DNA of 64,000 bases, from NCBI GenBank assembly GCA_031459875.1, contig JAVKHQ010000011.1:17500-81499 (forward strand), in the 5' to 3' direction. Source of the DNA: Candidatus Fervidifonticultor sextus. Lineage in GTDB: Bacteria > Sysuimicrobiota > Sysuimicrobiia > Sysuimicrobiales > Humicultoraceae. How positions within the stretch are numbered: the first letter of the stretch is position 1; every line of letters begins with the position of its first letter. The notes below the pieces were generated by a model. It had not been told where the DNA came from. It saw only the letters and a list, made by a program, of their open reading frames with translations, and ran no database searches. Below, one piece after another: positions 8,790-22,987 of this stretch. The position numbers were made by a program, and so were the translations under genes.

Positions 8790-9206
8790 CTACACGCCGC
8801 GCACGGTGAGACCGCGCGACACCGCCGCGGTGGCCTGACGGTCGTCGTGGGTCCAGAACTCCAGCGGTTCCCCGGGCGCCTCCGCAGCGAGCATCTCCGC
8901 GGTCGCGACATGGATCGCGTCCATCGCGCGGGCGATCACCGCGAACGAGCTCTTCGCCCCTGCGATGACGCGTTCGTCGACCAGCGCGAGATCCATCATG
9001 GAGAGCAGATCGATCAACTCCTTACGCTTGACCGCCGTTTCCACATCGTCGAGGCGGCCCATCAACCGCTCGCGGTCCACCGCTCGAAAGGTTTCCACTT
9101 CCACGACTTGGGAGGAGACAATCCGGTCGCCGGCATCGAGCGGGACGGTGGGTCCCGGCTCAAAGAAGAGCACACGCAGGACGGCGCTAGCGTCGACGTA
9201 CTTCAC
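8790..9206 (-). CDS. vapC: PIN-domain (VapC-type) toxin
   Basis: 'KYVDASAVLR...E...AMDAIHVATA...FWTHD' PIN acidic residues; GTG start overlaps the antitoxin 3' end. Confidence 0.88.
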   Translation of the reverse strand: MKYVDASAVLRVLFFEPGPTVPLDAGDRIVSSQVVEVETFRAVDRERLMGRLDDVETAVKRKELIDLLSMMDLALVDERVIAGAKSSFAVIARAMDAIHVATAEMLAAEAPGEPLEFWTHDDRQATAAVSRGLTVRGV

Positions 9207-9477
9207 TGGGATCCTCGCGGACCGCATCGAGCGATGCCTGGATGTCCACGCGCCGGCCGAGCCTGGAGATCTTGAGGGCGCTCCAGTTCTGGGTTCCCGG
9301 CCGAAGCCGCCCCGCCCGTGCCAGACGTTCGTGCCACGACAGCACGGCGTCCGGCGGCGGGCCAATCTCTGCGACTGGCTCGTCCCTGTCCCTCACGATG
9401 ATCCGGGATCCACGCGAAGCCATGCGGAGATACTTGCTGAGACGAGCTTTGAGTTCGCTCACGTTGACGTCCTTCAT
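9187..9477 (-). CDS. Phd/YefM family antitoxin
   Basis: 'MKDVNVSELKARLSKYLR...IIVRDRDEPVAEI' Phd signature, upstream of the PIN gene. Confidence 0.9.
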   Translation of the reverse strand: MKDVNVSELKARLSKYLRMASRGSRIIVRDRDEPVAEIGPPPDAVLSWHERLARAGRLRPGTQNWSALKISRLGRRVDIQASLDAVREDPSEVRRR

Positions 9478-9512
9478 GGCCGTATCATAAGGCCATGAAG
9501 GTCTCAATGCAA
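9471..9512 (-). promoter_or_regulatory. Toxin-antitoxin promoter with palindromic operator
   Basis: -35 TTGCAT (9507-9512), 17-bp spacer, -10 TATGAT (9484-9489); perfect 11-bp inverted repeat CCTTCATGGCC-N9-GGCCATGAAGG (9471-9501) brackets the -10 box. Confidence 0.8.
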
Positions 9513-9615
9513 CGGTCTTTCCTTCGCGGCGCCGCGAAGGGCCGTTCGGTCCCTTCGGCCGTCCTCCGGCCTCCCCCGGCAGCATGGGAGGAGGGCTTGG
9601 ACACGACCTCGGGTC

Positions 9616-9690
9616 TGGTGGGCGAGGAGGGTGTCGAACCCCCGACCTCCTCCGTGTAAAGGAGGCGCTCTCCCGCTGAGCTACTCGCCC
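9616..9690 (-). tRNA. tRNA-Val(TAC)
   Basis: Reverse complement GGGCGAGTAGCTCAGCGGGAGAGCG-CCTCC-TTTACAC-GGAGG...GGTTCGACACC...CGCCCACCA. Confidence 0.96.
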
Positions 9691-9695
9691 GCGTC

Positions 9696-9704
9696 AGTAT
9701 AGCA
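9696..9704 (-). promoter_or_regulatory. Extended -10 (TGCTATACT) for tRNA-Val
   Basis: TGnTATACT 5 nt before the tRNA 5' end. Confidence 0.7.
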
Positions 9705-9996
9705 TGGGTCTCTCCGGGCGGGAGCAGGGCCTGTCTTGGGCAGGGTCATCCCCTGCGAATTTCCTGTGGAAAAGATGCGGTCCCGTGCGTGCGTGGCCAA
9801 AGTCTGACTGAATAATATATTTCTAAATAACTTTAATCCGAGAATCCGGCGGCAGACCGCAATGCGCACTTTTTCGACCAAACCGAAGGGAAAATACCGG
9901 CGGCGCGCGAATTTTGGCTTTTTGAACCCAATGGCCAGGGGCGATTCCGGGAGGAGGCCTTCCCCGGGACGAGACCAGCCGGCCGAGGTGACGCCC

Positions 9997-10734
9997 TTGA
10001 AGAAGACGAATCCGGCGCAGGCTGACCTGTTGGTGCGCCTCATGGAACTGGCCGATGCCCCCCATAACCTGGAGGCCATGCAGTATGTGGTCTTCCAGTT
10101 CGATTTCAAGGACTACGAGCAGTTCATCATTGAGTGTCCGCCCGGCAGCATCCGGTTCAACAACGTGTTGCGGGTGGCGGTCTTCTGCGACAACCTCGGG
10201 TACCTCGTCGAGACCGAGGCGGTGGATCGCGAGGCGGTCTACGAACTCTTCCCGATCCCGTGGGCGAAGGTCGAGCCGATCATCCAGGGGATGCGCCGCG
10301 AACTGGACTGGCCCGATGCCTTCGACTACTTCGAGCGCCTCGGGCGCGACTACATGAAGTGGTGGGAGGCCAAGCGCAAGCGGATCAAACCGCTTCCACC
10401 GCTGCCCCAGACTTCCAGTACGCCGCGCGCCCTGACCGTGGCCCGGACGCGGGCGCCCCTGCCCGTCAGGCCTCCGGTGCCGCCCCGGCCGGCCGCATCG
10501 CCGGCGGCGGCGCCCGCGGCCAGGACGGCCTCGCCCGCCACACCCGCCGCCAAGCCTCCCCTGAGGGTCCTGGCCAAGCCTCCGCTGCAGCTGGCCAGGA
10601 AGCCGGTGAAGGTGCTCAAGACCAGGGCCGGGAGCCGACCTGCGGCAAAGGGCACGCCAAAGAGCAAGGCCAGGCCAAAGTCAGGAGCCCGGGCCGGGCC
10701 GAAGGCCAGGGCCACGTCGTCAAGGCGCCGATAG
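9997..10734 (+). CDS. Hypothetical protein: helical DUF4760-like domain plus Pro/Ala/Lys/Arg-rich basic tail
   Basis: GAGGTG RBS then TTG at 9997; 'FCDNLGYLV...W.KVEPII..MR...FDYFE.L' pattern; host-like codon bias. The family call is from recall. Confidence 0.7.
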   Translation: MKKTNPAQADLLVRLMELADAPHNLEAMQYVVFQFDFKDYEQFIIECPPGSIRFNNVLRVAVFCDNLGYLVETEAVDREAVYELFPIPWAKVEPIIQGMRRELDWPDAFDYFERLGRDYMKWWEAKRKRIKPLPPLPQTSSTPRALTVARTRAPLPVRPPVPPRPAASPAAAPAARTASPATPAAKPPLRVLAKPPLQLARKPVKVLKTRAGSRPAAKGTPKSKARPKSGARAGPKARATSSRRR

Positions 10735-13748: not shown

Positions 13749-13875
13749 CAGATGATTCGGGCCGGGGCTACCGATTCCTTGGGTGGGATCGTGGGGCCCG
13801 GCTCCACGACGCCGGTGGACTGAGCCGGCAGTCCGCCACCTCCGAGGCGGACCTGTGACCACGATTGCGACACAG

Positions 13876-15582
13876 ATGAGCGACGACATGGAGGCGAGGG
13901 GCGGCTTCCTGGCGCTGATGCGCCACCGCAACTACGCCTGGCTGTGGTCCGCGCAGCTCATTTCCCTCATCGGGGATCGCTTCCACTGGGTGGCAATCTC
14001 GCTGTGGGTCTTCGCCCAGACAGGCTCCGCGCTGTCCGTGTCCTACGCCATCATGGCGCTCCTGATCGCGCCGGCCCTGGTGGGGTTCTACGCGGGGGTG
14101 CTCGTCGATCGGATGGATCGGCGCCGGATCATGGTGGCGGCGGATCTCGTCCGGGCCGGACTGGTCGCCGCGATTCCTTGGTTGATGGAGCAGGGGATCG
14201 GATGGGTCTATCTCGACCTGTTCCTGATCTCCTCGGCGTCCGCCTTCTTCCGGCCTGCGATGTTCGCGGCCATCCCCCAGTCTGTGCCCAAAGCCCGACT
14301 CCTGCAGGCCAACGCCTTCTTCGCGTCCATGGACTCGAGCACCGAGGTCTTCGGGCCGGCGCTGGCCGGGCTGGTGGTGGGCTCGCTGGGCTATGCCGCG
14401 GCGATGTACGTGGACGCGGCCAGCTATCTAATCTCGGCTGTCTTCATCGCGATGCTGCGGCTTGACCGCGTGGAGCCGTCCGGCGCGGAGACCGCCCGCC
14501 GCTCCCAATCCGCCGCCGCTCCCGTCGTGGGGGCACGGGGCGTGGTGCTACCGGCCAGGGCGTACCTGTCGGCGGTCGCGCAGCAGGGGGGAATCCTCCA
14601 CTCCCTGCGCGAGGGCCTCAGGTACATCCGCGGCGACCGGATTCAGGTGGCGCTCGTGGCCCTCCTCGTCGGCGGGTTCTGGGTGGCCGGGCTGAACTCG
14701 CTCCAGACCCCGCTGGCCAAGGGGGTGCTGGGGGTCACCGACCGGCAGTTCGGGTGGTTCCAGAGCGTCTGGGGCATGGGGTTCATCGCGGCTTCGCTCT
14801 TGCTGGCCTGGTTTGGCGGCCGGTTCCCCAAAGGGCAGGCGATCGTGTTCGGGTACCTGCTGTGGGCGGTGGCCGCCGGCGCCACGGGGCTGAGCCCAAA
14901 CTACGGGATGCTCATCGTGTCGGGCTTCTGGGTCGGATTTGCCAACATGCTGGTCTTTGTCAACGTGGCCACCCTGATGATGGAACACACGCCCGAAGAC
15001 ATGATGGGCCGGGTGGTCACGGCCCGCCAGATCCTGGTGGCGTTGATCCGGGTGGCGGCGCTGTTGGGGTTTGGAGCCCTGGCCGATCTCTTCGGGCCAC
15101 AGACCGGCCCGCGCGCCGCGATCCTGGCCATGGCCGGGATTTCACTTGTCGGTACCTTCGTGGCAGCCGCCAGGTTCCCGGTGCTGTGGCGATACCGGAT
15201 CCCGATCCAGCCCCGCGTCGGCGAGACGGCCCCCGTCACCGCAGTGGCCGAGGGGCTGGCGCACCGGATCGCCCCGTTTGGGGCCATCATCCGCGTCCTC
15301 ATCGATCGGACGGACCCAGAGTTCGATCCTGCTGAACAGCGGTGGTTGAACGCGGCCACCCTCTTGATTGTCGGAGTTGGCTGGCTGGTACTCCTGATGG
15401 TCCAGCCGCCTCAGGCCTTCGGCATTGCCGCCGCCGTGGCGGTGTCGATCCTGATCGCCCACCTCGTGCGGGTCATGGCAGGGCGACTTTGGCCCTCGGC
15501 AGGCGGGCATGAGACAGGTGGGGCGGGGCAGGCCTCGCCAGGACAGGAGGAGGAAAAGTTGGGGAGGAGGCGAATACCCTAG
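13876..15582 (+). CDS. MFS transporter (MFS_3/DHA3-like) with C-terminal membrane extension; start uncertain
   Basis: 'LWSAQLISLIGD', motif A 'GVLVDRMDRRRIM', 12 or more hydrophobic segments. Confidence 0.88.
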   Translation: MSDDMEARGGFLALMRHRNYAWLWSAQLISLIGDRFHWVAISLWVFAQTGSALSVSYAIMALLIAPALVGFYAGVLVDRMDRRRIMVAADLVRAGLVAAIPWLMEQGIGWVYLDLFLISSASAFFRPAMFAAIPQSVPKARLLQANAFFASMDSSTEVFGPALAGLVVGSLGYAAAMYVDAASYLISAVFIAMLRLDRVEPSGAETARRSQSAAAPVVGARGVVLPARAYLSAVAQQGGILHSLREGLRYIRGDRIQVALVALLVGGFWVAGLNSLQTPLAKGVLGVTDRQFGWFQSVWGMGFIAASLLLAWFGGRFPKGQAIVFGYLLWAVAAGATGLSPNYGMLIVSGFWVGFANMLVFVNVATLMMEHTPEDMMGRVVTARQILVALIRVAALLGFGALADLFGPQTGPRAAILAMAGISLVGTFVAAARFPVLWRYRIPIQPRVGETAPVTAVAEGLAHRIAPFGAIIRVLIDRTDPEFDPAEQRWLNAATLLIVGVGWLVLLMVQPPQAFGIAAAVAVSILIAHLVRVMAGRLWPSAGGHETGGAGQASPGQEEEKLGRRRIP

Positions 15583-15731
15583 GGTACCGGACCGACAGCA
15601 TGGCAAGCGCGACACTCAACGTCGCAAAGTGAATACCGAGCCCCTCATAAGTCGACCTGCTCCTGGTCGACGGGCGACCTGACCCACCCCGAGTGCAGCG
15701 GCGCGCCCTAACCGCGTATCAGGGTGATCAG

Positions 15732-15803
15732 GTGAAACTGATTCGCGCGGTCAGCAACGCGATTGCTCGCGGGCTATTGCTGGGCGGCGACAGGGAGATG
15801 TGA
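15732..15803 (+). CDS. Putative 23-aa peptide MKLIRAVSNAIARGLLLGGDREM (not in the ORF track)
   Basis: AGGGTGA SD-like sequence at 15721-15727, GTG 15732, TGA 15801-15803; directly precedes the HD-GYP pair. Confidence 0.55.
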   Translation: MKLIRAVSNAIARGLLLGGDREM

Positions 15804-15833
15804 GCTGTCGGTCTGGTTTTCCTTTTCCTAGGC

Positions 15834-17120
15834 TTGATGCAGACTATCTCGCGCGAAGTCCGACTTCTGGTCTTAGTCGAAGTCTCGCTGGCCACGTTGG
15901 CGGTGGTGATCCACGCCGATTCGATCTCATGGTACGAGTGGCCACAAATGCTGTTGTTTTTCCTCGTTGTCGTTGTCGGTTTCTCAGTTCGCATTTCAGA
16001 TCCACGTGGTGGAGCAGTCACGCCAAGCACAGTGCTCTCGTATCTCTTGATCTACTTGTTTAATATACCGACAGCTCTCCTGATTGTCATGGCGGGGAGG
16101 ACAGCTGCATACATCGTCTCAAGAGGAGGGACCTTTTGGCGAGCCGTCGGTAACGGCTCGCTTATGGCCTTAAGCGTTGGCGCAGGAGGATTCGTGTTTA
16201 GGCTGCTGGGTGGTATGCCAGGGCAAATCGAGTTTTCTTCTGTTACTCTCCCGGCAATCATAGGAGGTCCTCTCGCTCACCAAGTCGCTAACAACTTTTT
16301 TGTCAGCTATGCTGCGAGCCGCTGGCGAGGAACACCCTTTCTTAGCAGCTGGTTCGATAGTTTCCGCGATCTGCTCTGGCCGAACCTTCTTAGCATCCCC
16401 ACGGCTGTATTCCTTGCTATTCTGTCAATCGACGTGCACCACATTGTGGTAATGGGATACTTAGCTCTCCTGCCCTTTCAGTGGCAGGCCCTCCGCCTAT
16501 ATCTCAAGCGACGACAACTATACACGCAAATCGTCGATGGGTTGGTGGTGGCCGCCGACGTGAATTTCCCCCTGGGCAAGGGACATGCGCGCCGTGTGGC
16601 TGACCTTGCGGTGGCGATTGCGCGTAAGATGCTCCTTAGCGAGTCGATCGTGGAGTCGGTGCAATTCGCAGCGCTGCTTCACGATGTTGGGATGATAGGG
16701 AAGGACGATTTGCTTGATCGCCCTGTCTTAACTATGGAGGATGCGGAGAATCTGCTTGATCATGTGCGTGTGGGCGCTGCAATGGCGCGTGAACTTCCCC
16801 GTAAGGAAATCGCTGAAGCGATCCTTTACCATCACGAACGGTTCGATGGAACAGGATACCCTGGTGGCCTCAGGGGTGGGGAAATTCCACTTCCAGCAAG
16901 GATCATAGCTCTTGCTGAGGCCGTCGACAGTATGGCATTCGGGATCTTCCCGTACTCCCCGGTGTCCACACGGTCGGCGATAGTCTCCGCCATCTTGAGC
17001 GAAAAAGGCAAATCGTTCGACCCGGAGGTTGTTGATGCGTTCATGAGGGCGGTTGAGGGGAGGAATGTTACTCTTGACTACGATACGGCGCGCCAAGCTG
17101 TCATGGGCCGCATCTCCTGA
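15834..17120 (+). CDS. Membrane-anchored HD-GYP protein (degenerate motifs)
   Basis: About 220-aa multi-TM N-terminus, then 'GHARRVA', 'HDVGM', 'HHERFDGTGYPGGL'. Confidence 0.88.
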   Translation: MMQTISREVRLLVLVEVSLATLAVVIHADSISWYEWPQMLLFFLVVVVGFSVRISDPRGGAVTPSTVLSYLLIYLFNIPTALLIVMAGRTAAYIVSRGGTFWRAVGNGSLMALSVGAGGFVFRLLGGMPGQIEFSSVTLPAIIGGPLAHQVANNFFVSYAASRWRGTPFLSSWFDSFRDLLWPNLLSIPTAVFLAILSIDVHHIVVMGYLALLPFQWQALRLYLKRRQLYTQIVDGLVVAADVNFPLGKGHARRVADLAVAIARKMLLSESIVESVQFAALLHDVGMIGKDDLLDRPVLTMEDAENLLDHVRVGAAMARELPRKEIAEAILYHHERFDGTGYPGGLRGGEIPLPARIIALAEAVDSMAFGIFPYSPVSTRSAIVSAILSEKGKSFDPEVVDAFMRAVEGRNVTLDYDTARQAVMGRIS

Positions 17121-17140
17121 ACTGGGGGACTGTAGGCAAG

Positions 17141-18421
17141 ATGGCGCTTGAACAGCAGTGGCGTGTCGGCCGGATTGTTCTTGTGGGCGCTGGAGGCATC
17201 TCCCTGGGTTTTGGGCTATCAGGGCTTGCGGAATTCGACCTAGCGTTGGCGGGATTCCTGCTCGTCTTGGCGCTGGCTGGGGAGTGGCTGGAGGTGCGGC
17301 TTCGCCCGCTTGGCAGTTTCACGTTGCGACCCGTCGTTGCTTTCATCGGCCTTTGGATTGCCGGTCCTACTCTCCTAATGTTTGCTGGTTTGCTTCCCAT
17401 TCTTATTATTGGCTTCCTGACAAAGAGAGCTTCTCTTCCGGGGTTGCTTTCTATCGCCGGAAGAGACTCGCTTTGTTTCTGGCTTGCTTTTGTGGCTTAT
17501 CGTGGGACTCTGGGTTTTCGCAACTTGCCATGGGAGATGACAGCTGGGAGCGCGGTGGCCGCCCAGCTCGCTGGCTTAGCCTCATTCTGGATCGCGCAAG
17601 TTCCTCTACAGGCCGTGGAGCTCTACCTCAGGGAAGGGATCCAATTCCGGGCAGTACTCCGGCATCTCGTCCAGCATACATGGGTGCACGCGGTTGCCCT
17701 GGTGCTCGCGGCTCTTGCGTTGAGCTACCTGGAAACAAATTTCGGCTTGGTCGTAATGGGCATTGCAGTCATCATGCTTGTTGAGACCTACTACCCTTGG
17801 AAACTCCTGGGGGAACAGGACGGGATATTGCTCGCTAGCATCCAAATGATGGCCCAGGCTGTAGATCTGAAGGACCCGTACACGTCTAAGCATTCCCAGA
17901 GAGTTTCGCAATTTTCAGTTCGTCTTGCCCGGGCAATGGGACTTGGCGAGGACGAAGTAGAGCGCATTCGGATTGGAGCGCTTATGCATGATATAGGGAA
18001 AATTGGGATAAGTGGACGAATTATCCGCAAACCAAGCAAGCTCACTGCTGAGGAGCATGCGATAATGCGGGAGCACCCATTAGTGAGCGCCGACATAATC
18101 GGACCACTGGAGATACTGGGAGAATCTGCGGAGATGGTTCGGCACCATCACGAAAATTGGGATGGAACTGGTTATCCGAATGGCTTGAAAGGCGAGGAGA
18201 TCCCCCTTGGCTCGCGAATCATCTTTGTCGCAGACGCGTTGGACGCTCTTGTTACGCATCGTCCCTACCGGATGGGAGTACCTTTGGCTGAGGCGTTAGC
18301 GATTATCAAGAAGAACGCAGGTACACAGTTTGATCCGGCCGTTGTGGAAGCGTTGGGTCGGATACCTGAATCTGTTTTGATCGCTATCGTCGCTGACCCC
18401 ACTTCTGCTGCTCAACTATAG
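17141..18421 (+). CDS. Membrane-anchored HD-GYP phosphodiesterase (canonical motifs)
   Basis: Multi-TM N-terminus, then 'KDPYTSKHSQRV', 'HDIGKI', 'HP', 'HHENWDGTGYPNGLKGEEIP', 'ADALDAL', 'RPYR'. Confidence 0.92.
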   Translation: MALEQQWRVGRIVLVGAGGISLGFGLSGLAEFDLALAGFLLVLALAGEWLEVRLRPLGSFTLRPVVAFIGLWIAGPTLLMFAGLLPILIIGFLTKRASLPGLLSIAGRDSLCFWLAFVAYRGTLGFRNLPWEMTAGSAVAAQLAGLASFWIAQVPLQAVELYLREGIQFRAVLRHLVQHTWVHAVALVLAALALSYLETNFGLVVMGIAVIMLVETYYPWKLLGEQDGILLASIQMMAQAVDLKDPYTSKHSQRVSQFSVRLARAMGLGEDEVERIRIGALMHDIGKIGISGRIIRKPSKLTAEEHAIMREHPLVSADIIGPLEILGESAEMVRHHHENWDGTGYPNGLKGEEIPLGSRIIFVADALDALVTHRPYRMGVPLAEALAIIKKNAGTQFDPAVVEALGRIPESVLIAIVADPTSAAQL

Positions 18422-18466
18422 GCCGACTCAAGGGTTGCGCGGGATTGGTGATGGAGGGCTCTCTCC

Positions 18467-21400
18467 ATGGCGAGGCTGCAGATTGGGCTTTTTGGGCGAT
18501 TCACTGTGGCCATTGAGGAAAGACCGATCAAACTCCAGACGGCCGCCGCGCGGCTTCTCGCTTATTTGGCTCTCGCCGGCGAGCGCCCCGTCTCTAGGGG
18601 GCGAATTGCCGGATCGCTGTGGCCAGAGTTGACCGAAGGACGTGCGCGGTCCAATCTCAGTACGGTATCATGGCGGTTGAGATCAGAGCTTTTGGACCAG
18701 GGATTCACGGGTGACGTCATATCCGCCTCGGGCACTCTCTTGTGCCTCAAGATGGCTTCGTGCGACGTGGATGTTGAGCAGTTCCGACAGTCTGCTCTCG
18801 TTCCCAGAGCCGAGGGCTACCCGCTGGAGGCTTTGAGCAGGGCAGTCGGGGCTCTAAGGCTTTACAGGGGTGACCTCTTGGAGGACTGGGATGCCGAGTG
18901 GTGCAACGTAGAAAGAGAGAACCTCCGCCGTAGGTACTTCGATACACTTCGGGCGCTGACGGATGCTTTCGAACAGCGCGGCCGGCTTGACCATGCCGTA
19001 CTTTATGCTCGAATGGCTGCAGGGGCTGAGCCCCTGGACGAGTCAGCACAGCGGACACTGATACGCCTCCTCTTTCTTACCGGCGACAAGGCATCGGCTG
19101 TGAACCAGTTCAACAAGTTCGCGAAGCTCGTTCGATCGGAGCTTGGAACGGAACCTGACGAGGAAACCCTGGCATTGTTTCATGAGATGCTGTCATCATA
19201 TAGGACGCAGCGCTCTCCGTATAGGTTTCAGGCTGGTCGAGACCTGTCAGTTCGTACAGAGAAGGTGCCGCTTCTTGGAAGGGTCGAGCCAAGGCGGCAG
19301 ATCGGTACTTTTCTCGATGCTGCCTACGCAGGCAATGGTGGGGGGTTCTTGCTGCTCGGAGAGGCTGGAATCGGCAAGTCCAAGCTTGCCGAGTGGGCGA
19401 TGGAAGAATGGGCGGCTCGTGGCGGCTCAAGCGTGCTAGGGAGGTGTATGGAGTTCAACGAGCCGGTCCCGTATCAACCTCTGCTCGACGCGCTCGCAGC
19501 CTACATCGAAGCGGCGGATCTTACTGCGTTCATCGGTGAGGGGAATTCCGTCTTGTCAGCGCTACGGATGGGCAACGGGGAGTCCGATCGGGCATTCGGG
19601 CAAACGAGTCGACCCGCCGCCTGGCCCACCGGTAAGTTGCGGCTTTTCCGCTGGCTTCGCGGGCGCCTGGAGGAGGTGAGCCGGAGCCGCCCGCTTCTCA
19701 TGGTCCTCGAGGACCTCCAGTGGGCTGACAAGGGGACCCTGGACTTCCTCACGTACCTCCTCGGAGGCGCCGGCACCATGCCCCTGGCCGTCGTCCTTAC
19801 ATCGCGCCCGGCACATCACCCGCCGAAAAGCCGGCTCGGCACGCAGCGACTCGGGCGCTACTGCTCAGGCACGATCCATCTTGGCCCCCTCAGCAGGGAA
19901 GAGACCTTTCAGTTGGTGCGGAGCCTCGTTGAGGATTGGCAGATTTCTCATGACGTGGCTGATTGGCTGTACAGGGAGACGGAGGGCAATCCACTATTTG
20001 TGATCGAGACCCTCCGGCTATTGCAGCAACAGGACAAGTTCGAATCACTGGCACGGGGTCGCTTGTTTGACGCTGCGCGTGGAGACGACCTGTCCGTGAG
20101 CTTCGAAATCCCGGACGGCGTGCGGTCGGCCGTCCGGCAACGACTCGACATGCTCGATGCTACCGCGCTCCTAATTGCTGAAATCGCATCCGTTTTGGGC
20201 CGGTCTGTCGACGAGGAGTTACTTGCGATGGTATCGGGTACCGGGCCGAACCGCCTCTCTCGGGCGATTGCGCATCTTTTGCGAGTGGGAGTGTTTGAGC
20301 GCGAGAAGGCCGGGTATAGGTTTTCCCATGACAAGATCCGGGCAGTTTGCTACGAAAGCCTGCCGGCCAGAGCTCGGAGGACCTACCACGCGCGGGCCGC
20401 GGCCGCCCTAGCCCAGATGCCGGAGGTACCGGCCCAGCGCCTCGCATGGCACCAGACCTGTGCGGGCCAATGGCATCTTGCCTCGGCCACCTGGGCAGCT
20501 GCCGGGGAGAGCGCTGTTGAGATACATGCCTACGACGAAGCGCTCCGGGCCTACCGCCATGCGATCTCCTGTGTCCGCCGGGACACGACTCGAAGTGCGC
20601 AAGAAAGGAACCTGGAAGAGACTAGGCTCCTCTGTAGGATCGATGAGGTACTCGCGGTGACGGGGAGGCCCGCAGAGCGACGAATAGTACTGGAACAGAT
20701 GGCCCTAGCGAGTCGTCGGGCCTGCCGCGCGCACGCTCAGGCCCTTTGGTTCATCCGCAGGGCCCTATTCGAAGAGCATGAGGCGAATTTCCTTACGGCC
20801 GCCCGGCTTGCACGCAAGGCTTGGTGTATCGCACGAGATGAGGGTGATTCCCTTACAGAGGTGGAAGCCTTGCGCATCATTGCATGGGCGCTGAACCGAC
20901 AGGGGCGCCATGTGCGGTCGTTGGCAGTCTCAAGTCTGGCCTTCAGGAAGGCTGGAAGCCATTCCTCTACGTCGAAGGCGGCCATTTTGCAGGAGGCAGC
21001 TGTTGTTCGTATCAAGTTGAACGACTATGCACTAGCACTATCTTACCTTGAATCGGCTAGGAGGATTCTGACCGATCTGGGTCATGAAGACGACCACCCA
21101 TTGATATTGGCGACTGAGGCCGTAGTGCACAAATGGTCGGGCGACCTAGCCTCCTGTCGATCGTGCCTCACGCGGGCCATTCAGTCTGCAGAGCAAATCG
21201 GAGATGCCGTCACCGCAGCCAGGGTCTCGTTCCAGCTCGTCACCGTTGATGCACTGGAAGGCAGGCTTGGAGATTCCTTGCGGAGGCTTAGAAAGGCAAT
21301 CGTCGCCAGTCGGTCGGCCGGCTACCAACGCACCGGGATTTCCTGCCTGAATGAGGTGGCGAACGGGATCGGCCGCCTGATCGGCAACTATAGATGGGCA

Positions 21401-22081
21401 TGGGATGCGTCTGCCCGGGCCCTTCGAATGGCGCATGCCGCCGGGAATGACCTCTTGACTGCAGTTTGTCGGGATTCCCAAGCGCAGCTGCTTATGGAGG
21501 AAGGCCGGACTGCTGAGGCGCTGTCGGCCATCGATGAGGTCCTCGGGCTACTAGAGCGCACACACACATCACTTGGCCCAAGCCAGGAATCACTTGCACG
21601 TCGTGGTGCCATCCTGCTGCAAATGGGTAACCTTCCGCAAGCCATCGCCGACCTCGAACGTGCCAGACGTACCCAGACAGAGACCGGCGACCGCCTCGTC
21701 CTGGTGGACACTTTGACCTATCTGGCGCTGGCCTACGCGAAACGTGGCGACGCCGACCGGGGTCTGGCGACCTCCGAAGAGGCGCTCCGCCTGCTCGAAC
21801 AGATCGGCTTCGCGAACTACCAACCCCAACGCATCTTCTGGCACCACTACCTCATTCTCGAGATGCTCGATCGCCAGCCGTGCCTGGACTACCTAAGGAG
21901 AGCCGTTGAGTTCATTGAGGCACAGGCCTTGACACTGTCCAGGGCACAGGCGTGGCGGCTACGGACCCGTGTCCCCCTCAACCGCGAGATCCTGGCGGCG
22001 TGGGAGCGACACCGCCAGGCTCCAGACTCAGAGCAACGGATGGGAGAGCCCCAGGCTGTGCAGGCCGTTGGCCTCCTGTGA
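18467..22081 (+). CDS. SARP/BTAD - P-loop NTPase (STAND-like) - TPR transcriptional regulator
   Basis: Winged-helix-like start, BTAD-like 'LYRGDLL..W..EW..ERE...EPLDE', Walker A 'GEAGIGKS', Walker B 'MVLEDLQWAD', 'TEGNPLF', helical-repeat C-terminus; GGAGG RBS. Confidence 0.88.
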   Translation: MARLQIGLFGRFTVAIEERPIKLQTAAARLLAYLALAGERPVSRGRIAGSLWPELTEGRARSNLSTVSWRLRSELLDQGFTGDVISASGTLLCLKMASCDVDVEQFRQSALVPRAEGYPLEALSRAVGALRLYRGDLLEDWDAEWCNVERENLRRRYFDTLRALTDAFEQRGRLDHAVLYARMAAGAEPLDESAQRTLIRLLFLTGDKASAVNQFNKFAKLVRSELGTEPDEETLALFHEMLSSYRTQRSPYRFQAGRDLSVRTEKVPLLGRVEPRRQIGTFLDAAYAGNGGGFLLLGEAGIGKSKLAEWAMEEWAARGGSSVLGRCMEFNEPVPYQPLLDALAAYIEAADLTAFIGEGNSVLSALRMGNGESDRAFGQTSRPAAWPTGKLRLFRWLRGRLEEVSRSRPLLMVLEDLQWADKGTLDFLTYLLGGAGTMPLAVVLTSRPAHHPPKSRLGTQRLGRYCSGTIHLGPLSREETFQLVRSLVEDWQISHDVADWLYRETEGNPLFVIETLRLLQQQDKFESLARGRLFDAARGDDLSVSFEIPDGVRSAVRQRLDMLDATALLIAEIASVLGRSVDEELLAMVSGTGPNRLSRAIAHLLRVGVFEREKAGYRFSHDKIRAVCYESLPARARRTYHARAAAALAQMPEVPAQRLAWHQTCAGQWHLASATWAAAGESAVEIHAYDEALRAYRHAISCVRRDTTRSAQERNLEETRLLCRIDEVLAVTGRPAERRIVLEQMALASRRACRAHAQALWFIRRALFEEHEANFLTAARLARKAWCIARDEGDSLTEVEALRIIAWALNRQGRHVRSLAVSSLAFRKAGSHSSTSKAAILQEAAVVRIKLNDYALALSYLESARRILTDLGHEDDHPLILATEAVVHKWSGDLASCRSCLTRAIQSAEQIGDAVTAARVSFQLVTVDALEGRLGDSLRRLRKAIVASRSAGYQRTGISCLNEVANGIGRLIGNYRWAWDASARALRMAHAAGNDLLTAVCRDSQAQLLMEEGRTAEALSAIDEVLGLLERTHTSLGPSQESLARRGAILLQMGNLPQAIADLERARRTQTETGDRLVLVDTLTYLALAYAKRGDADRGLATSEEALRLLEQIGFANYQPQRIFWHHYLILEMLDRQPCLDYLRRAVEFIEAQALTLSRAQAWRLRTRVPLNREILAAWERHRQAPDSEQRMGEPQAVQAVGLL

Positions 22082-22156
22082 GAGGGCTCTGAGAGACTCC
22101 CTGCCTACGCTTCGGTCATCCGGAGGAATTGCGCCCGTGGCGCGGGTGAAGAGGCC

Positions 22157-22987
22157 ATGGCAGGCCGAATCGTCGCTCGGTTCTTGGTGGACCGCCCGGT
22201 GCGGCCCGGGATGGTGCGGGCCATCCTCGACACCCTCTCGGCCCAGGGCGGTGCGTACGAGCCACAGCTCATCCGGCGTGCGACAGACGAAGGACCGCGG
22301 CGGATCACCTGGAGCCGGATGGCCGGGCTCCTCGACGACATCGGACAGGCTGGGCTCCGGACTACCTTCCTGAGGGTGTCCGACGGTCGCCCGGAGCCGG
22401 TGCTCTCCTTCTCGATGAGCGCCTCACCTCGCAGCGATCCGAGCCGGGTCACCATGACGATCCCAGCAGCGGCGCTGGCCGCCAGTAGCGATGTCGAGCA
22501 GGTCCTCGGCGTGTGCAAGGGGTTGTACCTGTTCCTGGAGTCCCCCTGGGGCACCGTAGAACTCGAAGACGCTGCAGGGTCTTCTGAGGAGCAGTTGCGG
22601 ACGGATCCATCGCCTCCGGCCGTGACGCGTCCGGGTGCCGCGGCGTCGCCCGCGCCCTCGGGGGATGCGCCTACGTTCCTCCGCTGGGCCAACTTCTTCG
22701 GCCCCCAGGTGATCGCGCGGGTCGGGCCGGCACGCCTGCTGACATCGATGGCATTCATCGTCGAGATTCTCCCCGACGGGGGGATCATGCTGGTCACCCA
22801 TCCGTCTCCTCAGATGGCGGCGACCCCAGAAGGCCGGGCCCTCCAGCGGCAGATCGAAGACTCGACGGGGATCGGCGGGGCACTATCCGCCTTCAGCGGA
22901 GGGAGGCGAAGGCCTCCTTCACCTTCCCGTCTGCCTCGCACCACGGGACGGCGCCGCCTATCGGGGCACGAGGACGAAGACCCCTGA
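22157..22987 (+). CDS. Hypothetical protein
   Basis: GAGG RBS, host-like codon usage, fills the gap before mraZ. Confidence 0.7.
   Translation: MAGRIVARFLVDRPVRPGMVRAILDTLSAQGGAYEPQLIRRATDEGPRRITWSRMAGLLDDIGQAGLRTTFLRVSDGRPEPVLSFSMSASPRSDPSRVTMTIPAAALAASSDVEQVLGVCKGLYLFLESPWGTVELEDAAGSSEEQLRTDPSPPAVTRPGAAASPAPSGDAPTFLRWANFFGPQVIARVGPARLLTSMAFIVEILPDGGIMLVTHPSPQMAATPEGRALQRQIEDSTGIGGALSAFSGGRRRPPSPSRLPRTTGRRRLSGHEDEDP

Follow-up and report, generated by a model that had tools for sequence, protein, structure and literature searches.

In the 64,000-nucleotide (nt) stretch of Candidatus Fervidifonticultor sextus DNA analysed here (the window), a structured leader RNA of 232 nt (15586-15817, + strand) encloses a micro-gene for a 23-residue peptide and is followed by the genes of two membrane HD-GYP proteins, named here HD1 and HD2, and of a 1204-residue SARP-STAND regulator. 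The locus is a real, conserved and undescribed variant made of known parts, namely MASE9 domains, an HdgA/HdgB-like pair, a SARP-STAND protein and a leader open reading frame (ORF). We propose that the RNA gates expression and that the peptide partners the receptor pair at the membrane, a reading which we hold tentatively and judge to be just short of probable. A preliminary description of this DNA had overlooked both the leader RNA around the micro-gene and the dead active site of HD1.

The micro-gene (15732-15803, +, GTG start; MKLIRAVSNAIARGLLLGGDREM) appears in the ORF listing merely as the tail of a 36-residue frame. HD1 lies at 15834-17120 (+; 428 residues from a TTG, the conserved ATG being at 15837), HD2 at 17141-18421 (+; 426 residues) and the SARP-STAND gene at 18467-22081 (+). 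Re-reading and a domain search upheld the four co-oriented ORFs described earlier, with spacings of 30, 20 and 45 nt, and their domains, which are HD_5/HD in HD1 and HD2 and BTAD, AAA_16 and TPR in the 1204-residue protein. HD1 orthologues were found in 18 of 40 relatives and in 27 of the 94 genomes of the phylum, the source genome counted, and in all 28 phylum loci having upstream DNA the micro-gene stands before HD1, as an ORF of 16-23 residues at the equivalent site. HD2 is present in every locus, and the order MFS transporter-HD1-HD2 is kept in the 19 fetched loci, one of them inverted relative to the MFS gene. The SARP gene comes next in 14 of these 19; it is missing from three, in which HD2 runs on to mraZ, and the contig is too short in two. 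It is also next in 6/6 further loci, giving 20/25 in total or 20/23 informative loci. The earlier expectation of a self-contained unit, with a conserved short ORF and a BTAD partner beside homologous HD-GYP pairs, was borne out by these counts, and the four genes are supported as an inherited unit. Because the gene order is kept across relatives, the module is old and vertically placed. At locus L029 (genome G012) the block from RNA to SARP gene is flipped relative to both flanks.

By its codon pattern, the micro-gene is a real gene whose peptide is under purifying selection: dN/dS is 0.24 over 15 equal-length copies, and the second codon position is invariant in 12 of 22 codons, the third in 0 of 22. 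The peptide reads as a basic amphipathic helix with a short acidic/hydrophobic tail (hydrophobic moment 0.73). No conserved Cys was seen among the micro-gene peptides, and no paralogue was found in the source genome, which has a single copy. A relative's peptide matched only unnamed clusters of 31-33 residues in the ESM Atlas, at 0.86-0.89, and one run of an expression check gave short partial matches only.

The leader RNA is closed at its ends by the 14-bp stem P1 (15586-15599 with 15804-15817, +) and contains hairpin P2 (15609-15625, +; 5 bp with a conserved loop) and hairpin P4 (15677-15733, +), which pairs the Shine-Dalgarno (SD) site and start codon of the micro-gene. Its fold has a z of -3.27. 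An end-paired element of 195-244 nt enclosing the micro-gene recurs across the phylum loci, and P1 has at least 8 contiguous pairs in 25/28 of them; among 3000 random genome windows, 0.2% yield a 14-bp end-to-end helix. In an alignment of 20 copies the pairing of P1 and P2 holds at 90.6%, and 7 of their 19 pairs have changes on both sides; 0/500 shuffles are as high and slid controls give 20-39%, in a test where the structure was named from the same sequences and related sequences can beat shuffles. A compensatory A-U to G-C change in P2 is carried by 7/20 sequences and by 4/15 in another set. RNAalifold alone recovers P1, and also P2 in the closer set; P3 and P4, which align poorly, were not recovered. 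The pairing energy of P4 is -17.2 with its own partner vs -14.9 with partners from other loci, its own partner beats 95% of shuffles in 9/15 loci, and the ribosome site of the micro-gene in the window is predicted to be 20% unpaired.

A U-rich, terminator-like tract (15818-15826, +) stands directly after P1, and 5-8 U per 9 nt are found at this place in 28/28 loci. The stop codon of the micro-gene is no more than 4 nt away from the 3' arm of P1 in 23/28 loci and abuts the arm in the window; the layout of a leader attenuator, where a ribosome at the stop codon would block the stem before the U-tract, is found in the same number (23/28). A simple terminator scan misses P1 with its U-tract, the loop being 200 nt. 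Pairing to the anti-SD sequence before HD1 is weak or none, from +1.8 to -5.6 kcal/mol in 11 loci vs about -7 for the micro-gene, and HD1 of the window has no SD site. Rfam gave no match in the window, in 18 loci of the clade or in 20 Bacillota loci; ARAGORN made no tmRNA call for the leader RNA, and the riboswitch and 6S models of Rfam were likewise unmatched.

Upstream of the RNA, a SigH-like promoter (15551-15575, +; AGGA, 17 nt, GAAT) predicts a start at or just before 15586. The pattern AGGA-(15-19)-G[A/T]A[T/A] stands 3-16 nt before the RNA in 19/28 loci, against a mean of 0.4 and a maximum of 3 expected in shuffles, having been derived from the same 28 loci on which it was counted. It resembles the mapped SigH promoters of C. 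difficile (PMC7438776). Moreover, a sporulation-type sigH scores over the curated TIGR02859 cut-off in this non-Bacillota genome (G000:C24:11816-12409, L178). A SigH-type promoter may thus drive the leader RNA. The sigma-70 promoter scan made no + strand prediction.

Phosphodiesterases of the HD-GYP type share the motif set DxxD-YT-HS, HDxGK, HHE, GYP, DxxDA and RPYR. In HD2 the catalytic motifs are intact in the window and in 17 complete orthologues, whereas in HD1 of the window and of all 18 orthologues HDxGK reads HDxGM/L, the first Asp of DxxDA is Glu, and RPYR and D-YT are lost. Judged by these motifs, HD2 is an intact phosphodiesterase and HD1 a degenerate pseudo-enzyme. Cyclic di-GMP (c-di-GMP) is the likely substrate of HD2, since the source genome holds 6 GGDEF matches. 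The N-termini of both proteins are MASE9-type membrane domains by profile comparison: the HD proteins of the window have no match to PF20972 (MASE9) at E<=0.1, five of seven scanned HD1 orthologues pass its cut-off, and the HD2 N-terminal profile matches MASE9 alignments with a probability of 95.5-99%. HD1 is a discrete clade, 10 of 1179 representatives reaching E<=1e-30, and its membrane domain had no match among plasmids.

This membrane domain is predicted to have the fold of the S-components of energy-coupling factor (ECF) transporters. In the HD1 model (pLDDT 95) the best match is NikM (4m5c; Z 15.0, rmsd 3.3, 190 aligned), CbiM has Z 14.1, and ECF S-components fill the first 14 places (Z 15.0 to 9.9), the first unrelated row having Z 8.0; Foldseek also ranks ECF S-components first, though at E>=0.009. 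ECF S-components bind small ligands, and a shared fold alone shows no function. The modelled likeness extends to NikM, CbiM and RibU (PDB 4m5c, 5x3x, 5kbw); unlike these, the domain has about 10% identity to them, is fused to a signalling enzyme and has no ECF ATPase nearby.

The 1204-residue protein is, by its domains, a SARP-STAND (AfsR-like) activator with winged helix, BTAD, P-loop NTPase and TPR parts and Walker A at residue 298. BTAD (73 bits), AAA_16 (68 bits) and TPR_12 (44 bits) score over cut-off and Walker A/B are present; Trans_reg_C stays under cut-off at 21.4 bits and the AfsR equivalog is far below. Pfam/NCBIfam domain scans gave no match of this protein to the RRNPP family. At L027:4543-11758 two SARP-STAND copies stand in tandem, the second apparently frameshifted near residue 1043.

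The foreign composition noted earlier stands for the low GC and fails for a recent foreign origin. The block at 15801-22100 has 58.4% GC vs 70.2 +/- 1.9% for the genome (911 windows of 6.3 kb; none lower); a recent foreign island is rejected, as throughout the order the block is flanked by the same two genes, MFS and mraZ. In 15 relatives, GC of the HD pair is lower than that of the MFS gene in 10, higher in 4 and equal in 1, and low GC is therefore common, not universal. Compared with relative G002, the flanks reach 82-97% DNA identity and the RNA and micro-gene 93-94%; identity falls to 52-77% from about 15800 across both HD genes and the SARP start; within the SARP gene it is 81-93% in the NTPase part and 61-66% in the TPR part, reaching 93% again at 21600. 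From these identities, the mosaic is read as an allele exchange of the receptors, and the block as an old allele-swapped cassette. Its left boundary vs G002 falls at 15784-15815, and therefore the last two peptide residues differ along with the receptors. Elsewhere, a second HD-pair copy is broken with RNA and peptide still intact (G037:C2, L039), and HD1 is split with RNA and peptide still intact (G048, L095).

MASE9-HD-GYP loci also occur in Bacillota, Actinomycetota, Chloroflexota and others (scan of named genomes). MASE9-type genes are present in 86/201 genomes of the phylum of G094 and in 92/201 of that of G097, the latter tally including the unpublished G299, G346, G386 and G418, none of which is among the analysed loci. 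Among the best 30 loci of each of Bacillota and Actinomycetota, 28/29 and 16/27, respectively, of those with enough upstream DNA have before the MASE9 gene a hydrophobic micro-gene that ends in L-A-G-G-A and a further 2-8 residues; before HD-GYP genes without MASE9 a micro-gene was found in 0/52. Around most of the Bacillota and Actinomycetota micro-genes there is a long stem with a span of about 210-250 nt, by a count made without a null, and the 8-mer of P1 (15589-15596) is exact upstream of 9/41 micro-genes of two other phyla. At the f5 loci L049, L052 and L061, a 32-residue hydrophobic micro-gene has an ordinary local terminator and no long stem, and is followed by MASE9-HD-GYP and DUF5317-SPOR genes, and at L114:3500-3830 two tandem micro-genes stand ahead of one MASE9 gene; the peptide therefore matters apart from P1. 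DUF5317 lies beside 17/30 Bacillota loci; it was not found in the 96% complete source genome, and it occurs together with HD1 in 2/27 HD1 genomes, which are kin and not independent. DUF5317 might be an LspA-like peptidase, as it has two invariant Asp; against this, hhalign gives 0.26%, no solved relative was found and LspA was not listed in two fold searches with a pLDDT-96 DUF5317 model. The literature search found no relevant paper on DUF5317. The present clade looks like a derived form of this wider family, because it has no DUF5317, an amphipathic peptide, two receptors and a SARP gene.

In a relative, the 32-residue peptide of the hydrophobic class, modelled with its MASE9 domain, scored 0.40 vs 0.00 for the best control (partner pLDDT 56-63); 18/157 solved complexes also score 0.60 or less, as do the two false passes among 215. 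The model gives weak support to binding of that peptide to its own MASE9 domain, and it transfers to the present locus by analogy only, because profile and nhmmer comparisons detect no homology of peptide and RNA to the hydrophobic class. The earlier suggestion that the peptide is a ligand or small subunit of the membrane receptors thus gains something from a selected protein, a predicted ligand-binding fold and this weak modelled binding of a relative's peptide.

Several side observations belong to these loci. At L053 two repeats of a 13-residue ORF, with the first five residues as in the f5 micro-gene, replace the single micro-gene. The actinomycete series L105, L115, L116, L126, L138 and L156 runs from Trp-tailed micro-genes to a 9-codon remnant and to none (Streptomyces). 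Rfam found in 18 loci of other phyla two c-di-GMP-II riboswitches only, both in Chloroflexia (L100:3481-3564, L101:3522-3604), where the riboswitch is followed by a micro-gene and by genes of MASE9-HD-GYP and a DUF5317-MFS fusion, and an AAA/BTAD regulator gene lies upstream. The gene immediately upstream of the RNA in Bacillota loci and in some of Actinomycetota (L098, L102, L103) codes for a protein of about 210 residues with a weak LeuA_dimer match.

In the proposed mechanism, a SigH-type stationary-phase promoter would make a short RNA whose ends pair as P1 before the U-tract. By default, transcription would stop or the RNA be released at about 15820, and the ribosome site of the micro-gene would be hidden in P4. 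Opening of P4 by some signal would bring a ribosome to the peptide stop codon, where it would cover the 3' arm of P1 and allow read-through into HD1, probably with coupled HD1 translation. The 23-residue product may be a membrane-surface helix which associates with the MASE9 domains of an HD1-HD2 complex and tunes c-di-GMP breakdown by this complex of pseudo-enzyme and enzyme, and the SARP-STAND protein would be a co-inherited transcriptional output or activator. Further, it is possible, though rather doubtful, that an undescribed multi-phylum class exists in which S-component-fold MASE9 receptors degrading c-di-GMP have, as ligand or gating subunit, a micro-protein encoded in an end-paired RNA; the locus described here would represent it with a pseudo-enzyme/enzyme heterodimer, a SARP-STAND output and allele-swapped specificity groups.

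A number of points weigh against this mechanism and its wider form. P1 is nearly invariant, with little covariation within the family, and its near-invariance suggests recognition by a protein; P4 is clearly absent in 3/15 loci; and a long-range stem is unusual as an intrinsic terminator. Simple unmasking of the HD1 start through P1 opening is not supported, the predicted accessibility being 0.61 both ways. The peptides of G002 and the source are 91% identical and residues 1-150 of HD1 are 51% identical, and because of this difference the near-constancy of the peptide across the receptor swap argues against a tight specificity pairing of peptide and receptor. Profile comparison to the L-A-G-G-A peptides scores 6.3, within the null (mean 5.7, max 9.1) for such very short sequences, and therefore kinship to the micro-genes of other phyla rests on position, size and P1; nhmmer shows no RNA homology between this clade and other phyla, and no micro-gene is visible at the Streptomyces loci L138, L156 and L159, which still have the HD-GYP pair.

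It is unlikely that the leader acts only in cis, with the ORF mattering just as it is translated (attenuation or coupling) and the peptide having no partner. Such a leader would account for the stop codon abutting P1, the U-tract, the hidden ribosome site, the lack of an SD site before HD1 and the constancy of the peptide while receptors were swapped, but not for conservative residue changes along the whole amphipathic helix, with the low dN/dS, nor for related loci which keep or duplicate the peptide without the long stem; it also has no run of regulatory codons. Control by a leader ORF is known from pyrBI-type attenuators. Salmonella mgtQ-mgtB is another example (PMC8092293). The locus is like both in that translation of the short ORF would remodel the RNA before the next gene, and unlike them in that the complete ORF lies in the 200-nt loop closed by the stem, the conservation of the peptide is that of a protein and regulatory codons are absent.

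A secreted pheromone is quite unlikely. Here the peptide would be exported and trimmed after Gly-Gly, its tail being read outside by MASE9 or, once imported, by the TPR part of the SARP protein. In staphylococcal agr and Bacillus Phr systems the precursor is amphipathic or signal-like, the agr precursor adjoins a membrane sensor, and Bacillus phr genes have SigH promoters. The locus resembles them, in pattern only, by its precursor-like peptide near a membrane sensor, allele-swapped cassette and SigH-like promoter, and the modelled S-component fold, the constant MFS neighbour and the two terminal peptide residues changed along with the receptors would also fit, as would the peptides of other phyla, which resemble a signal peptide followed by a tail of 3-6 residues and, in Bacillota, often have DUF5317 beside them. 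On the other hand, the window peptide has a maximum Kyte-Doolittle value of 1.34 vs 2.1-2.7 and no signal-peptide-like hydrophobic core, no cleavable hydrophobic signal peptide of the Phr type was found in it, and DUF5317 was not found in this genome or in most HD1 genomes. Unlike agr and Phr, the neighbours and peptide include no AgrB, conserved Cys, histidine kinase or Rap and the output would be c-di-GMP turnover; in a further difference, most of the peptide falls beyond the swapped segment. The secreted peptide cue imagined at first is thus disfavoured by the lack of a hydrophobic core and of a DUF5317 match, and peptide binding to the TPR regulator is not supported, as nothing found links the two and three loci have no SARP gene.

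We regard as very unlikely a stand-alone stable small RNA or mRNA that is released and stabilised by P1, acting as a stem for RNase III or for a binding protein, with no attenuation. The near-invariance of P1, the exact core 8-mer in elements of two other phyla and the one RNase III-domain gene found in the source genome are consistent with it; it leaves the fixed spacing of stop codon and P1 and the immediate U-tract unexplained, and no Mini-III was found in the genome. A type I toxin-like element with a function unrelated to its neighbours is highly improbable: mRNAs of the hok/tisB type typically have paired ends and hidden ribosome sites and the small peptide is basic and amphipathic, as a membrane-active one may be, but it has a single genome copy, stands always ahead of MASE9 genes and never of other HD-GYP genes, and comes with no antisense RNA evidence.

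The proposal of RNA gating and a peptide partner bears on two described receptor types. In Streptomyces venezuelae, hdgA-hdgB (vnz24090/vnz24095) form a tandem of membrane HD-GYP genes which is probably co-transcribed and has an intact and a degenerate member, and the authors suggest that the activating signals of HdgA/HdgB were missing (PMC6205966). The present locus shares this pairing of an intact with a degenerate membrane HD-GYP gene next to it, a likeness from gene layout and not from a tree; it differs in that the degenerate gene is first and that a structured RNA and micro-gene stand before the pair and SARP-STAND after it. The layout first described as having no characterised precedent is, then, preceded in its tandem pair. 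The available part of the MASE9 description (PF20972; Galperin and Chou, bioRxiv 10.1101/2021.11.05.467447) names no ligand, peptide, RNA or fold. The proteins here are like MASE9-HD-GYP proteins in fusing a membrane sensor to HD-GYP, and unlike that description in that the membrane domain is modelled as an ECF S-component and HD1 is a discrete clade. No paper was found on the leader RNA, the micro-gene or the S-component fold, most subscription journals and bioRxiv supplements lying outside the search. The locus supplies two candidate inputs for MASE9 and HdgA/HdgB proteins, the conserved micro-protein and the structured RNA that has no Rfam match, and in addition a predicted fold of ligand-binding type. 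If the peptide does act on the receptors, it would be a direct link from small-protein signalling to c-di-GMP turnover, and the RNA, if the proposal holds, would be a new leader family with a whole gene inside the terminator loop.

The constant upstream neighbour is the MFS transporter gene (13783-15582, +; MFS_1/MFS_3, likely start near 13879). It adjoins the module, to which it may belong, in 19/19 and 6/6 relative loci, and its protein has 31% identity to the MFS part of the DUF5317 fusion at a Chloroflexia MASE9 locus. A conserved 276-residue gene without known family (22157-22987, +) separates the module from mraZ, and its protein has no match in Pfam or NCBIfam; seen among close relatives only, this gene is probably a neighbour outside the module. 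Farther upstream, the window has tRNA-Met at 1483-1558 and tRNA-Val at 9616-9690, and GC falls to 63% at 9001-10000.

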